Below, piece after piece: positions 22,132 to 53,890 of a DNA stretch of 64,000 nucleotides. Position 1 is the first letter of the stretch. The number at the start of each line of letters is the position of its first letter. Location: assembly GCF_050920415.1 (NCBI RefSeq), contig NZ_CP169309.1; one strand, 5' to 3'. Source of the stretch: Escherichia coli. Lineage in GTDB: Bacteria; Pseudomonadota; Gammaproteobacteria; Enterobacterales; Enterobacteriaceae. The notes under the pieces were generated by a model that had not been told where the DNA came from, did no database searches, and worked only from the letters and a program-made list of their open reading frames with translations. The position numbers were made by a program, and so were the translations under genes.

Positions 22132-25100
22132 TTGATTTAATGAATTTAACTTTTCAGTACAGCACGTAAAATAACTAAAACACCCTTGTTCTTTGGCGGT
22201 GCTCAGCCACCGCCACTATTATTCATGGTTTAGCAAATTTACGGCTAATTCATTATTTCTGGTCATATTATAGTCAGGATCGTTTTATACCTCCGTGCTA
22301 GAAAAAACACGTTTAATTCTGTTTTTTCACGGAAGGTCACTATGGCTTCGACAAATGCGCAGCAAATAAAAAATAATGATCAAAACTCTTTATGCGGTCT
22401 GGGTGACAAAATACGCCGCCTGGCCGCCGGAGTTTGTTTATTCACACAAATTTTTTTCCCCGTCATCGCGACGGCACAAAATGTGGTACACGCTAAACCC
22501 CAGATGACAGTTTCATCTCCTCCCCCTCTTACAGAAAATAAAACCGTACCTTACACGCTTGGCGCGCTGGAATCAGCGCAAAGTGTTGCTGACCGGTTCG
22601 GTATTTCACTGGAAGAGCTTCGTCGTCTTAATCAGTTTCGTACTTTTGCTCGCGGCTTTGATAACGTGCGTCAGGGTGAAGAACTGGATGTTCCGGCAAC
22701 AACCTCGCAGAGAAGTCATGAGCTACAAAATGCCGTATCACCGGCGAATGCCGAAAACACACTGGAGAATCAAATAGCCAGTACTTCACAGCGAGTTGGC
22801 ACTCTGCTTTCACAAGGTATGAATAGTGAGCAGGCGAGCAGCATGGCGCGTGGTTGGGCGTCTTCAGAAGCCTCTGGCACGATGACTGATTGGTTAAATA
22901 ACTTTGGCACCGCGAAAATCTCTCTGGGCGTGGATGAAGATTTTAGCCTGAAAAATTCGGAATTCGACTTCCTGCATCCATGGTATGACACACCCGATTA
23001 TCTGCTCTTCAGCCAGCATACCCTTCATCGAACGGACGATCGCACCCAGATCAACACCGGTTTAGGCTGGCGTTACTTCACCCCCAGTTGGATGTCAGGC
23101 ATCAACCTGTTTTTTGATCACGACCTGAGCCGCTATCACTCCCGCGCGGGACTTGGCGCAGAATACTGGCGTGACTATCTGAAGTTGAGCAGCAATGCTT
23201 ATATCGGCCTGACCGGCTGGCGTAGCGCACCAGAATTGAATAATGACTACGAAGCCCGCCCGGCTAACGGCTGGGATTTACGCGCAGAAGGCTGGTTACC
23301 TGCCTGGCCGCATCTGGGTGGAAAACTGGTCTATGAACAATACTATGGCGATGAAGTGGCGCTGTTTGACAAGAATGATCGTCAAAGTAATCCCCATGCT
23401 ATTACCGCAGGCCTCAACTATACCCCCTTCCCGCTTCTGACTCTCAGTGCAGAGCAGCGTCAGGGGAAACAAGGTGAAAATGACTCACGGTTTGCCGTTG
23501 ATCTGACCTGGCAACCCAGCAGCTCAATGCAGAAACAGCTTAACCCGGACGAAGTGGCCGGACGGCGCAGTCTGGCCGGTAGTCGTTATGACCTGATTGA
23601 TCGCAACAACAACATCGTTCTGGAATACCGCAAGAAAGAGCTTATCCGCCTGAGTCTGCTGGACCCAGTGAAAGGGAAATCGGGAGAAATAAAATCGCTG
23701 GTTTCCTCGCTACAGACCAAATATGCCCTGAAAGGCTATAAAATCGACGCTGCTGCGCTGGAATCTGCTGGAGGAAAAGTCAGCACTTCCGGAAAAGATA
23801 TCACGGTCACGCTGCCTGGTTACCGCTTCACTAACACCCCGGAAACCGATAATACGTGGCCGATAGACGTTACCGCTGAGGATGTAAAAGGTAATCTGTC
23901 ACATCGTGAGCAAAGCATGGTCGTCATCCAGGCTCCGACATTAAGCCAGAAAGATTCTCTGTTATCCGTTAATCCGCTAACCCTGGCAGCAGATAAAAAA
24001 TCGACTACCACATTGACTGTGACTGCGCACGATTCCGACGGAACTCCGGTTCCGGGGCTGGCACTGCAAACCCGCAGTGAAGGTGTTCAGGATATCACGC
24101 TGTCTGACTGGACAGATAACGGGGATGGTAGCTACACACAGATGCTGACTGCAGGAACGACTTCAGGTTCAGTAACACTGACACCGCAACTTAACGGTGA
24201 GAGTGCGGTAAAAGAATCCATCGTCGTTAATATCGTCCCTGTTGTCTCATCCCGCGACCATTCTTCAATATCCATAGATAACATATTGTATTATGCCGGA
24301 GACGACATCAAAGTCAGGGTAGAACTGAAAGACGACAACAATAAACCGGTTGAATATCAAGAAGACGCGTTGGTAAAAGCCGTCACTGTCGAGAACAGCA
24401 AACCAGGCGCCACGGTTGTCTGGCACGAAGAGCATCCGGGCGTTTATGCAGCGAATTATCCGGCCCATAAGCAAGGAGCAGCCCTGAGGGCACAACTTAG
24501 CCTTCACAACTGGAATACTCCTCTGCAATCGCATATTTATAATATCGAAGCAAACCAGAATAAGGCTCACGTCGCTACATTATCCGCAACGAATAATGAC
24601 GTTTACGCCGATAAAAAGACGTTTAATACCATCACTATTAACGTCACTGATGAGAGTGATAATCCCCTGAGAAATCATCAGGTCACCTTTAAGAATGAGA
24701 AAGGAAGCGCGGAATTTGTAGAACCGACGCAACAAAATACTGATGCACATGGTGTTGCCACAATCAACATGATAAGTCAGGTTGCGGAAGAAAATACGAT
24801 TAGCGCTACGCTGCCAAATGGTTCTACTCAACGGGTAACTGCGAAATTTGTTAGCGATTCGAATACGCCAAAACTCAAACAACTGGTTGCCGCTCCAGAT
24901 ACCATTAGTGCTGGTAATAGCCAGGGTAGTACCCTGACCGCCACCGTCACAGACTTTCATAACAACCCGTTAAAAGATATGAAAGTGAATTTTGTGGCAC
25001 CAACTGACTCGCAACTGGACAACACGACCGCCACAACTGACCAGTCCGGGATTGCGCGGGTGCACCTGACCAGTTCAAAAGCAGGTAACTATACCGTCGA

Positions 25101-26047
25101 TGCCTCGCTTGAGGCGGATAAAAATATTCACCAGTCGGTTACGGTTACCGTGGTCCCAAACAGGGAACAATCGGTAATTATTTTGAATGCCGGATCGGGC
25201 AGTACGATTGCTAACAATACAGATACCGTTACCCTGACTGCCAGTGTGAAAGATGTTTATGGACACTCACTACCGGATGAGGATGTGAAATTTACCTTGC
25301 CAGCATCTATGACAGGGAACTTCACGCTAAGTAGTGACACCGCTCGCACCGATTCAAACGGCAATGCCGTGGTCACATTGCGAGGCACAAAAGCGGGTGA
25401 GTTTACAGTGACGGCGACACTGAGCAGAAATAATACCAGTGCTAATCAGCTAGTCTATTTTATTGGGGATACAAGCAGCGCGCAGCTCCAGCCGCTGACT
25501 GCCTCATTAAATACCATAGTTGCTGGCAACAGTACGGGGAGTACCCTGACAGCAACGATCCTGGACGCTTACCAAAATCCGCTTAAAGACCAACAGGTCA
25601 CTTTCCAGAGTAACGATGTCACACTAAGCGGAACAGAAGTCACCACCAATACGCAGGGTCAAGCGACGGTAATAATGACCAGCAATATTGCCGGACAACA
25701 TAACGTAGTGGTGAGCCGGAAAGCGCAATCATCCGATAATAAAACGTTTAGTTTATCAGTGCTCCCGGATGAAAGTTCGGCGAAGATAATAAGTATAACC
25801 GGAGCCGAAAAAACGATAATGGTTGGCGAAAACATCACGCTACGAATACACGTACAGGATGCGTTTAATAACGTCATAGCCGGTCAACGCGTCAGATTAA
25901 GTGCGCTGCCAACAGCTAACATTACGATAGACGATACGGCTTACACCGATAATAACTAGACTGGCCCCCTGAATCTCCAGACAACCAGTATCACTTAAAT
26001 AAGTGATAGTCTTAATACTAGTTTTTAGACTAGTCATTGGAGAACAG

Positions 26048-26413
26048 ATGATTGATGTCTTAGGGCCGGAGAAACGCAGACGGCGTACCACACAGGAAAA
26101 GATCGCAATTGTTCAGCAGAGCTTTGAACCGGGGATGACGGTCTCCCTCGTTGCCCGGCAACATGGTGTAGCAGCCAGCCAGTTATTTCTCTGGCGTAAG
26201 CAATACCAGGAAGGAAGTCTTACTGCTGTCGCCGCCGGAGAACAGGTTGTTCCTGCCTCTGAACTTGCTGCCGCCATGAAGCAGATTAAAGAACTCCAGC
26301 GCCTGCTCGGCAAGAAAACGATGGAAAATGAACTCCTCAAAGAAGCCGTTGAATATGGACGGGCAAAAAAGTGGATAGCGCACGCGCCCTTATTGCCCGG
26401 GGATGGGGAGTAA
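26048..26413 (+). CDS. insC: IS2 transposase OrfA (InsC)
   Basis: 121 aa from [24 protein letters not shown], with HTH region. Confidence 0.9.
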
Positions 26414-27276
26414 GCTTAGTCAGCCGTTGTCTCCGGGTGTCGCGTGCGCAGTTGCACGTCATTCTCAGACGAACCGATGACTGGATGGATGGCCGCCGCA
26501 GTCGTCACACTGATGATACGGATGTGCTTCTCCGTATACACCATGTTATCGGAGAGCTGCCCACGTATGGTTATCGTCGGGTATGGGCGCTGCTTCGCAG
26601 ACAGGCAGAACTTGATGGTATGCCTGCGATCAATGCCAAACGTGTTTACCGGATCATGCGCCAGAATGCGCTGTTGCTTGAGCGAAAACCTGCTGTACCG
26701 CCATCGAAACGGGCACATACAGGCAGAGTGGCCGTGAAAGAAAGCAATCAGCGATGGTGCTCTGACGGGTTCGAGTTCTGCTGTGATAACGGAGAGAGAC
26801 TGCGTGTCACGTTCGCGCTGGACTGCTGTGATCGTGAGGCACTGCACTGGGCGGTGACTACTGGCGGCTTCAACAGTGAAACAGTACAGGACGTCATGCT
26901 GGGAGCGGTGGAACGCCGCTTCGGCAACGATCTTCCGTCGTCTCCAGTGGAGTGGCTGACGGATAATGGTTCATGCTACCGGGCTAATGAAACACGCCAG
27001 TTCGCCCGGATGTTGGGACTTGAACCGAAGAACACGGCGGTGCGGAGTCCGGAGAGTAACGGAATAGCAGAGAGCTTCGTGAAAACGATAAAGCGTGACT
27101 ACATCAGTATCATGCCCAAACCAGACGGGTTAACGGCAGCAAAGAACCTTGCAGAGGCGTTCGAGCATTATAACGAATGGCATCCGCATAGTGCGCTGGG
27201 TTATCGCTCGCCACGGGAATATCTGCGGCAGCGGGCTTGTAATGGGTTAAGTGATAACAGATGTCTGGAAATATAG
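26371..27276 (+). CDS. insD: IS2 transposase OrfB (InsD), DDE integrase-like catalytic domain
   Basis: 301-aa ORF overlapping insC in the -1 frame, the IS3-family frameshift arrangement. Confidence 0.9.
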
Positions 27277-29098
27277 GGGCAAATCCACTAACGGCTATGC
27301 GTACGTTAACCTTATCAGCACCCAGCCTGGGGTCTATCAGGTGACAGCATCGCTGGACAATAACAGTAGTCGTAAAGTTGACGTGAGTGTGGCAAAGGGC
27401 AAACTCGAGTTAACATCATCGAAGCCAGAAACCACGGTCCATAACAGTGAAGGTATTACACTGACCGCAACGGCAAGAAATATTCAGGATGAATTGATGC
27501 CGGGGCAAATTATCACCTTTAGCGTAACACCTGATGGTGCAACGCTAAGCAATACAGGGGAAATCCTGACTGATCAGTCAGGTCAGGCCAAAGTGACGCT
27601 GACCAGTGACAAAGTCAATGTATATACCGTTACGGCCACAATGGGCAAAGACGTTCCCGTTCAGAGCCAGGTGACGGTTGCGGTTAAGGCTGATGCTACA
27701 ACGGCACATGTTGTGAGTGTAGTGGCTTCTCCTGACACCATAATCGCCGACGGGGTTGATAGCAGCACCATCACTTCACGAGTAGAAGATGATTATGGAT
27801 TCCCGGTTGAAGGTGTCGACGTTAGTTACAGCTTAGACACCAAAGGCAGCCCGGTGATTAATAATCCAACTACGCGTACCGATCAGTCCGGGCAAGTCAC
27901 GGCGACAATAACAGGTACATTGGCAGAAGCTCTAATTGTCAATGTTCAGGTCCCTGGCACAGTCCACAAATCCGCAGCCATTACATTGATTCCTGGTACG
28001 GCAGATGAAAGTAAATCAACATTGAAATCTAGCGTTAGCTCTTTTATGGCTGACTTCCAGGAGAGCGCGACACTTACGTTAATATTGCAAGACAAGTACG
28101 GTAACCCGATAGTGACGTCTGATCATCTGGAATTTGTCCAGTCAGGTGCCTACGTGAACCTCCTGAAGTTGAGCAATATTGATTACAGCCAAAGAAATTA
28201 CGGCGAGTACACCGTCACTGTCACTGGCGGCGTAGAGGGCAGAGCGACTCTCATTCCTATGCTGAACGGTGTTCATCAAGCAAACTTAAGCATATCACTG
28301 GATCTTGTCCGCTCAATAAAAGACATGCACGGTCATGTAACAGTCAACAACCATACCTTCACAACGGCTACATTCCCCAGTGAAGGTTTTATAGGGGCGT
28401 ACTACACACTTAATGATGACAACTTTGAAGCGGGTAAAACCGTTAGTGATTATATGTTCACAAGTTCACAGAGTTGGGTGTCTGTCGATGCTTCAGGTAA
28501 AGTTTCTTTCACAAATACCGGCGACCAAACTTCAGTCGTAATAAGCGCTGTTCCCAGACAAGGAGGTACAACCTACCAGACATTAATTAAGCTGAAAGGC
28601 TGGTGGGTGAATCATGGGAATCAAACCAATATCTGGCTAACTGCCAATGCGTTCTGCAACGCGAAAAGTGATGGATATAATCTTCCTGGCGTCGCACATT
28701 TAACGTCTGGCGAAAACAAACGCACGTTGGGATCGCTATATGGTGAGTGGGGGAACGTTGGGGAGTTTTCCAGTGATTCGCAATTTACCGCGGGTGCTTA
28801 CTGGACCAATCAACAGGATGATTACAATAGTCACGTCTATGTGCAGATGCTGACGGGCAGGATTGGAAGCGACGCAGATTCCAGCGCTCAACTAACTGCC
28901 TGCCGTAAATCACTTTAATTTCTGAAGTAGTTATTAAAGGATACCCTTTTGCGAGGGTATCCTTTCAGACTCATGACAAAAGCCAAATTGCCTGATGCGC
29001 TACGCTTATCAGGCTTACACTATCTCTCTAATATATTGAATTTTTATGCTTTTGTAGGGAGCACAAGGCGTTTATGCCGCATCTGGCACGAGCAAACA

Positions 29099-38956: not shown

Positions 38957-39295
38957 GATTTTTCCTCTTTCACATAGTGGGTTCCACAGCAAAAAAACGC
39001 GGAATCCCGGAGTTGTTTAGGTATCCGGATGAACAACCAGACCGCAGCCGTGGCATTGCATCGGATGAGATGGCGTATAAGTTCTACCTTTTGGTAAGAC
39101 ATGTCAACCCGAATTCAAAAATTGGTTAACCACATCACAAGATTTTCACGCGCACGCTCGTTGCTGCAAATTGCAGCAAAGGGTAATTGATAGTTATTAA
39201 TCAGAGGGTGTGACATTCATCGCAACAATGGTTGACCAATTTACATAACATGTCGCCCAAAATAACAACGGTTCAACCAGGTAAGGTAAAACGTT

Positions 39296-51738: not shown

Positions 51739-52845
51739 ATGAATAAAACAATAACGGCGCTTGCTATCATGATGGCTTCATTTGCCGCAAACGCGTCTGT
51801 ATTACCGGAAACTCCGGTGCCATTTAAAAGTGGTACCGGAGCAATTGATAACGACACTGTCTACATTGGTTTAGGTAGCGCAGGTACGGCATGGTACAAG
51901 CTGGATACACAGGCCAAAGATAAAAAATGGATAGCGTTAGCTGCATTCCCTGATGGGGCGAGAGATCAAGCAACCTCTGCATTTATTGATGGCAATCTGT
52001 ACGTATTTGGCGGCATTGGCAAAAACAGCGAAGGCTTGACTCAGGTATTTAATGACGTACACAAATACAACCCCAAAACCAATAGCTGGGTTAAATTGAT
52101 GTCGCACGCGCCGATGGGCATGGCGGGCCATGTGACTTTTGTACACAACGGCAAGGCTTATGTTACTGGCGGTGTTAACCAGAATATCTTCAATGGCTAT
52201 TTTGAAGATCTCAACGAAGCTGGAAAAGATTCAACCGCTATAGATAAAATCAACGCCCACTATTTTGACAAAAAAGCAGAAGATTATTTCTTCAATAAGT
52301 TTCTGTTGTCTTTTGATCCCTCAACACAGCAATGGAGTTACGCTGGCGAATCTCCCTGGTACGGGACGGCTGGTGCAGCGGTTGTGAATAAAGGCGATAA
52401 AACCTGGCTTATTAATGGTGAAGCCAAACCAGGACTACGAACGGATGCCGTATTTGAACTTGATTTCACCGGTAATAATTTGAAATGGAATAAACTTGCT
52501 CCCGTCTCATCACCAGATGGCGTCGCTGGCGGTTTTGCAGGCATGAGCAATGACTCACTTATATTTGCCGGAGGGGCCGGATTCAAAGGTTCACGGGAAA
52601 ATTACCAAAACGGTAAGAACTATGCGCATGAAGGCCTGAAAAAATCATATAGCGCTGATATTCATCTTTGGCATAACGGGAAATGGGATAAATCGGGCGA
52701 ATTATCGCAAGGTCGGGCCTACGGAGTATCATTGCCCTGGAATAATAGTTTATTGATTATTGGCGGTGAAACTGCAGGCGGCAAAGCGGTAACGGATTCA
52801 GTATTGATCTCTGTGAAGGATAATAAAGTCACAGTGCAAAACTAA
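51739..52845 (+). CDS. nanM: N-acetylneuraminate mutarotase NanM (Kelch-repeat beta-propeller)
   Basis: 368 aa from MNKTITALAIMMASFAANA; the track ORF extends upstream into nanC. Confidence 0.9.
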   Translation: MNKTITALAIMMASFAANASVLPETPVPFKSGTGAIDNDTVYIGLGSAGTAWYKLDTQAKDKKWIALAAFPDGARDQATSAFIDGNLYVFGGIGKNSEGLTQVFNDVHKYNPKTNSWVKLMSHAPMGMAGHVTFVHNGKAYVTGGVNQNIFNGYFEDLNEAGKDSTAIDKINAHYFDKKAEDYFFNKFLLSFDPSTQQWSYAGESPWYGTAGAAVVNKGDKTWLINGEAKPGLRTDAVFELDFTGNNLKWNKLAPVSSPDGVAGGFAGMSNDSLIFAGGAGFKGSRENYQNGKNYAHEGLKKSYSADIHLWHNGKWDKSGELSQGRAYGVSLPWNNSLLIIGGETAGGKAVTDSVLISVKDNKVTVQN

Positions 52846-52909: not shown

Positions 52910-53890
52910 ATGAACGCAATAATATCGCCCGATTATTACTATGTTCTTACCGTTGCTGGTCTGTCTAATGCCATGGCGTATGGCGAAGGACTGCCATTAC
53001 CGGACAGGGAAGATACGCCTCATCCCAGAATTAAACAATTAGCGAGATTTGCGCATACGCATCCCGGAGGCCCGTCATGTCACTTTAACGACATTATTCC
53101 ACTGACTCACTGCCCACACGATGTTCAGGATATGCAGGGTTATCACCATCCTCTGGCAACGAATCATCAAACACAGTACGGCACCGTTGGCCAGGCTCTG
53201 CATATTGCACGGAAATTACAGCCCTTTATTCCTGATAACGCGGGGGTTCTCATCGTTCCATGTTGCCGTGGCGGATCGGCTTTTACTGCGGGCAGCGAAG
53301 GGACATATTCAGAACGGCACGGAGCCAGCCATGATGCTTGTCGTTGGGGAACGGATACCCCTCTATACCAGGATTTAGTCAGCAGAACGCGAGCCGCACT
53401 GGCAAAAAATCCGCATAACAAATTCCTCGGCGTATGCTGGATGCAAGGCGAATTTGACTTAATGACAAGTGACTACGCGTCACACCCTCAACACTTTAAT
53501 CATATGGTTGAAGCCTTTCGTAGGGATCTAAAACAATACCATTCTCAGCTTAATAATATTACTGGCGCGCCGTGGTTTTGCGGCGATACCACCTGGTACT
53601 GGAAAGAAAGTTTCCCTCATGCGTATGAAGCTATTTATGGCAATTATCAAAATAATATTTTAGCCAATATTATTTTCATCGACTTCCAGCAACAAGGTGA
53701 AAGAGGGCTGACGAACGCGCCTGATGAAGATCCGGACGATTTAAGCACGGGATATTTCGGTTCAGCGTACCGGTCACCGGAGAACTGGACGACGGCACTG
53801 CGAAGCAGTCATTTCAGCGCGGCAGCCCGTCGGGGGATTATTTCTGACAGGTTTGTAGAAGCAATTTTGCAGTTTTGGAGCGAAAGGTGA
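52910..53890 (+). CDS. nanS: 9-O-acetyl-N-acetylneuraminate esterase NanS
   Basis: 326-aa ORF recognised as NanS/YjhS. Confidence 0.85.
   Translation: MNAIISPDYYYVLTVAGLSNAMAYGEGLPLPDREDTPHPRIKQLARFAHTHPGGPSCHFNDIIPLTHCPHDVQDMQGYHHPLATNHQTQYGTVGQALHIARKLQPFIPDNAGVLIVPCCRGGSAFTAGSEGTYSERHGASHDACRWGTDTPLYQDLVSRTRAALAKNPHNKFLGVCWMQGEFDLMTSDYASHPQHFNHMVEAFRRDLKQYHSQLNNITGAPWFCGDTTWYWKESFPHAYEAIYGNYQNNILANIIFIDFQQQGERGLTNAPDEDPDDLSTGYFGSAYRSPENWTTALRSSHFSAAARRGIISDRFVEAILQFWSER

Follow-up and report, generated by a model that had tools for sequence, protein, structure and literature searches.

The window analyzed here is a stretch of 64,000 nucleotides of the Escherichia coli contig NZ_CP169309.1, in which a gene is split by an insertion sequence. 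According to annotation, synteny and Pfam domains, the interrupted gene is iatD, located between yjiJ and kptA and encoding an inverse autotransporter of 1746 amino acids. Its 5' fragment (22342-25956, forward strand, codons 1-1205) is an open reading frame with the domains IAT_beta, Big_1 and Invasin_D3, and its stop codon TAG is supplied by bases 1-3 of the insertion sequence (25957-25959). The 3' fragment (27293-28918, forward strand, codons 1206-1746 and the stop) carries the domains Big_1, Invasin_D3 and Invasin_D4. Both fragments are identical to iatD of E. coli MFDS1022581 (100% in the case of the former), and their 1205 and 541 codons make up the intact 1746-codon coding sequence of that genome. 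The features of type Ve adhesins known for IatD are all seen here, namely the N-terminal IAT beta-barrel, the Ig-like Big_1/Invasin_D3 repeats, the length of approximately 1746 amino acids and the yjiJ-kptA locus. The iatD family has been described previously, and biofilm is formed upon over-expression of iatD (PMC6714894).

The insertion sequence occupies positions 25957-27287 (forward strand), and direct reading of the window reveals a canonical, complete IS2 of 1331 bp with the termini TAGACTGG...CAAATCCA. Each of these end sequences occurs only once in the window, so there is a single IS2 within it. The left inverted repeat (IRL, 25957-25998, forward strand, 42 bp), the recipient end, starts with TA, and the right one (IRR, 27247-27287, forward strand, 41 bp), the donor end, terminates in CA-3'. 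In the gapped alignment the two repeats are mismatched at positions 2, 5 and 7, and IRL has one base more, at position 9, a pattern that matches the published asymmetry of the IS2 ends (PMC3219604, PMC3299598).

The InsC-type orfA (26048-26413, forward strand, 121 amino acids, start ATG and stop TAA confirmed) encodes the HTH domain of the transposase (HTH_Tnp_1, E=1.8e-19). It overlaps the orfB frame (26371-27276, forward strand), an open reading frame for the DDE catalytic part (Pfam domains rve, 1.1e-18, rve_3, 1.8e-18, and HTH_21), and the two are joined at the A6G slippery site A AAA AAG (26365-26371, forward strand) by a programmed -1 frameshift, yielding the OrfAB transposase. All 1331 bases are shared with the IS2 of MFDS1022581, an identical copy for which PGAP gives the annotation 'IS3-like element IS2 family transposase, programmed frameshift', and 1328 of 1331 (three differences) with an IS2 of the genome N18-04097. 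All testable defining features of IS2 are present in the element, which resembles E. coli IS2 (IS3 family, IS2 group) in length, inverted repeats, TA/CA termini, A6G frameshift, HTH and DDE domains, and the gain of 5 bp of target DNA.

Across the two junctions the window reads ...CCGATAATAAC / TAGACTGGCCCCC...GGGGCAAATCCA / CTAACGGCTATG..., the slashes marking the ends of IS2, or, in a longer read, ...ACACCGATAATAAC / TAGACTGGCCCCCTGAATC...ATATAGGGGCAAATCCA / CTAACGGCTATGCG.... The left flank is ATAAC (25952-25956) and the right flank is CTAAC (27288-27292), matching at four of five positions. An earlier note on this DNA had reported an IS2 with exactly these flanks in an adhesin gene, at 25952-27292. 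On direct reading its coordinates, the two flanks and the four-of-five match are exact, the element is identified as IS2 by the identity to the annotated copy, the inverted repeats, the reading frames and the domains, and the adhesin gene is iatD.

The probability of a match at four or more positions between random 5-mers is about 1.6%. In all five uninterrupted iatD alleles compared (5/5, including those of the ~94% clade) the site reads GATAATAACGG, with a single ATAAC, and a query of the joined flanks with one ATAAC has an uninterrupted match in 639 complete E. coli genomes, at 100% in one of them. As the empty site has one ATAAC, this was the target; relative to it the window has gained 1331+5 bp, of which four bases (TAAC) repeat the target; the similarity of the flanks is not due to chance, because the empty site demonstrates the 5-bp duplication. 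The left copy of the target-site duplication (TSD) is ancestral and unchanged. The sole discrepancy is found where the right copy begins, with C instead of the ancestral A at position 27288, directly abutting IRR, and this base alone distinguishes the locus from an ordinary IS2 insertion. The 100% alignment with MFDS1022581 skips it, beginning at 27289. In sum, the adhesin is truncated after residue 1205 by an IS2 inserted at the normal 5-bp stagger on ATAAC.

The frequency of imperfect duplications was estimated in a survey of IS2 copies with both ends, taken from scans of genomes, metagenomes and viral contigs and comprising 96 distinct sites (loci L005-L372). A perfect 5-bp repeat is found at 63 of the 96, and 61 of these 63 copies are exactly 1331 bp long; among the 87 distinct 1331-bp copies surveyed, 61 have perfect repeats at the same termini as in the window. 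At 32 of the 96 sites the flanks differ in at least two positions, which was considered as no repeat. These copies fit IS2-IS2 recombination, adjacent deletions, or chimeric assembly of contigs, and when they were searched for a base intervening between IS end and TSD, nothing above chance emerged. A four-of-five repeat is seen at one of the 64 duplication-bearing sites (L054), the other 63 being perfect, and the case of the window is thus unusual, at about one in 65. The statement of the earlier note that a 5-bp duplication is normal for IS2 is correct. A mismatch adjoining the IS end is observed at none of the 64 duplication-bearing sites, and so any process linked to the ends affects less than approximately 5% of insertions, and perhaps is far rarer.

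The L054 element (1068-2399 of a metagenome contig) was rejected as a comparable case. It is an old IS2 variant, diverged by about 5% and extended to 1332 bp by an internal 1-bp insertion; its flanks are GAATC and GAGTC, with the mismatch in the central position, and it lies within a GAGTC-type tandem repeat. The perfect duplications of the survey also display a symmetric target-base bias, T being rare in position 1 (4/63) and A being rare in position 5 (4/63), to which ATAAC conforms.

The same insertion was not found elsewhere. IS2 in iatD at this site is absent from all other complete E. coli genomes (5,426), in which 24,355 IS2 places were counted, and the flank NTAACGGCT follows IRR at none of the 372 loci from the genome, metagenome and viral contig scans and E. 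coli regions. Exact look-ups gave no record for the 1205-aa N-terminal fragment, and none for the 555-aa C-terminal reading frame that spans the junction, either in the observed version (KSTNGY) or in the one expected from a perfect TSD (KSNNGY). A word-indexed homology search retrieved two partial IatD fragments and nothing else.

An IS2 is also present in iatD of N18-04097 (NZ_CP047277.1; L001, 3008-4338). It is the same element in the same orientation and in the same gene, with a similar AT-rich target, but it arose independently, 1.33 kb upstream (at the equivalent of 24626-24630 of the window), with a perfect ATACC duplication, in a diverged (~92-93%) allele of iatD. The similarity of the two targets, TAATACC in N18-04097 and TAATAAC in the window, hints at a possible target preference within the AT-rich iatD.

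MFDS1022581 (NZ_CP169399.1) is the only near-clonal relative of the window among the 5,426 complete E. coli genomes, and its iatD site is empty. With IS2 removed, the window differs from it by two substitutions and no indels over approximately 62.7 kb. As the site of the relative is empty and only two differences separate the two sequences, the insertion is younger than their split at ~3.2e-5 differences per site, that is, it is very recent. Consequently, the usual explanation of an imperfect TSD as old and decayed does not fit this locus, and the recency points to either an insertion-time or a technical origin of the mismatch.

The two substitutions are located at 39117 (A in the window, C in MFDS1022581), between uxuA and gntP and beside an A-run, and at 52472 (G in the window, A in MFDS1022581), within nanM. 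MFDS1022581 has its own copy of the 100%-identical IS2, in the opposite orientation, between nanM and nanS, with a perfect 5-bp duplication, while in the window the same site is a clean empty TGTCT (52962-52966); it is uninterrupted in 5012 of 5054 genomes. Thus each strain has a recent IS2 insertion that the other lacks, the two sites lying 25.7 kb apart. This reciprocal pattern resembles a 'move', but is more simply explained by two independent gains.

By itself, the sequence of the duplication would be equally compatible with a TAAC duplication of 4 bp plus an added base, with a random mutation, or with an error in base calling; the first of these is sequence-equivalent to a change that occurred at insertion. 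From the position of the base and the age of the insertion, the C at 27288 appears most likely to have been produced by the insertion itself and not by later decay, a preference that we hold tentatively and with less than even confidence. Consistent with it, 27288 is one of only two positions, out of ten in the TSD, that are open to a process linked to the IS ends, which counts for an insertion-time change. What the element is, where it ends, which sequence it entered, which base changed and that the insertion is recent have been shown, whereas the timing of the change and the flap-retention route by which it could have arisen are inferred.

This candidate route builds on the manner in which IS2 transposes. 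Transposition of IS2 is of the copy-out/paste-in type and passes through a figure-of-eight and then a minicircle, whose junction has a 1-bp spacer in 90% of cases; the spacer derives from host DNA flanking IRL, and circles are functional only with the 1-bp spacer (PMC3299598). In the present case, the minicircle junction would have carried a spacer copied from the host base beside the donor IRL. Once the junction had been cleaved, each end of the element would bear the spacer nucleotide as a 5'-phosphorylated flap of 1 nt. The gap of 5 nt at the right end would be filled toward the flap; if only four nucleotides were filled in and the flap was sealed in place instead of being removed, an A.G mispair would result exactly at 27288, to be fixed as C:G via replication or MutY-type repair. 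Had the spacer been C, the left end would show no trace of such an event, as the target base adjoining IRL is already C.

That the C at 27288 is a retained 1-nt minicircle spacer, a copy of the host base beside the donor IRL, is a narrower proposition than a change at insertion, and we consider it rather improbable. The commonness of C beside IRL, observed at 21 of the 63 perfect duplications, counts for a spacer origin, whereas the efficient removal of 5' flaps that is normally performed by Pol I counts against flap retention. Junction spacers of other IS3-family elements (2-4 bp in IS911, IS3 and IS150, compared to 1 bp in IS2) likewise place host-derived nucleotides at the 5' ends of the excised element, where the odd base sits. 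Still, spacers of this family are described as being lost upon integration, and here one would have been retained; we found no published report of spacer retention. Full-text matches on imperfect IS2 duplications were dominated by IS26 and IS200. The IS2 between nanM and nanS of MFDS1022581 was considered as the donor copy and rejected, since that site is clean and empty in the window and the IRL-adjacent base, A, would give no mismatch.

A technical origin is somewhat unlikely. Under this explanation position 27288 is in truth an A, misread as C through an error of sequencing, assembly or polishing at the edge of a multi-copy repeat; for example, reads of other IS2 copies with a right flank beginning with C could have been mapped here during polishing. 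The position is indeed the very first unique base past the repeat, where mis-mapped reads have the largest weight, C often comes first in the right flank of IS2 copies elsewhere (65 of 230 viral-contig matches), and no second genome with the insertion was found that could confirm the base. On the other hand, the source sequence otherwise looks highly accurate, with no indels and two substitutions against an independent assembly over ~62.7 kb and an IS2 identical to that of the relative at 1331 of 1331 bases, and junction-spanning reads with long unique overhangs should outvote the mis-mapped ones.

The main explanation of the earlier note, a spontaneous A-to-C substitution that followed a perfect ATAAC/ATAAC duplication, is unlikely. 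It invokes the simplest mechanism, the site is neutral because iatD had already been inactivated, and decay of IS2 duplications does occur, as in the four-of-five repeat of the ~5% diverged L054 element. However, the time available is very short: with two differences in ~62,700 bases since the split from MFDS1022581, random substitutions among the ten duplicated bases are expected to number about 3e-4 (at most ~1e-3 by the Poisson bound), and only one in five of them would fall beside an IS end. Moreover, A:T to C:G is not known as a favoured type of spontaneous change, which also counts against a later substitution. Thus, of this explanation, the imperfection itself stands, while its origin after the insertion agrees poorly with the age of the insertion.

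The other explanation of the earlier note, that the IS2 ends had been placed one base off, so that a shift of register would reveal a perfect duplication, is refuted, and we regard it as virtually excluded: the identical IS2 of MFDS1022581 and the independent IS2 in iatD of N18-04097 have perfect duplications (AGACA/AGACA in the IS orientation and ATACC/ATACC, respectively) at the same termini, as do other copies of 1331 bp, the alignment of IRL and IRR yields the published asymmetry from base 1, the empty site has a single ATAAC, and shifted registers at the IS2 of the window give no perfect repeat. The imperfect repeat therefore persists after the ends have been mapped against other IS2 copies and uninterrupted iatD alleles.

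The element, its mechanism and the accessory adhesin gene have all been described already, and the imperfect base is genuine but minor. The insertion is a routine one of IS2, inactivating an accessory adhesin/biofilm gene in one E. coli lineage, and mostly of little consequence. As the sequence reads, the imperfection of the repeat is genuine and no slip of annotation, and so programs for calling insertion sequences and their TSDs that demand perfect repeats would mis-handle the site. If the C at 27288 did originate as a retained minicircle spacer, IS-proximal TSD mismatches would, for copy-out/paste-in elements, serve as molecular barcodes that mark the donor locus, and the donor copy of a single transposition event might be identified from the genome sequence alone.
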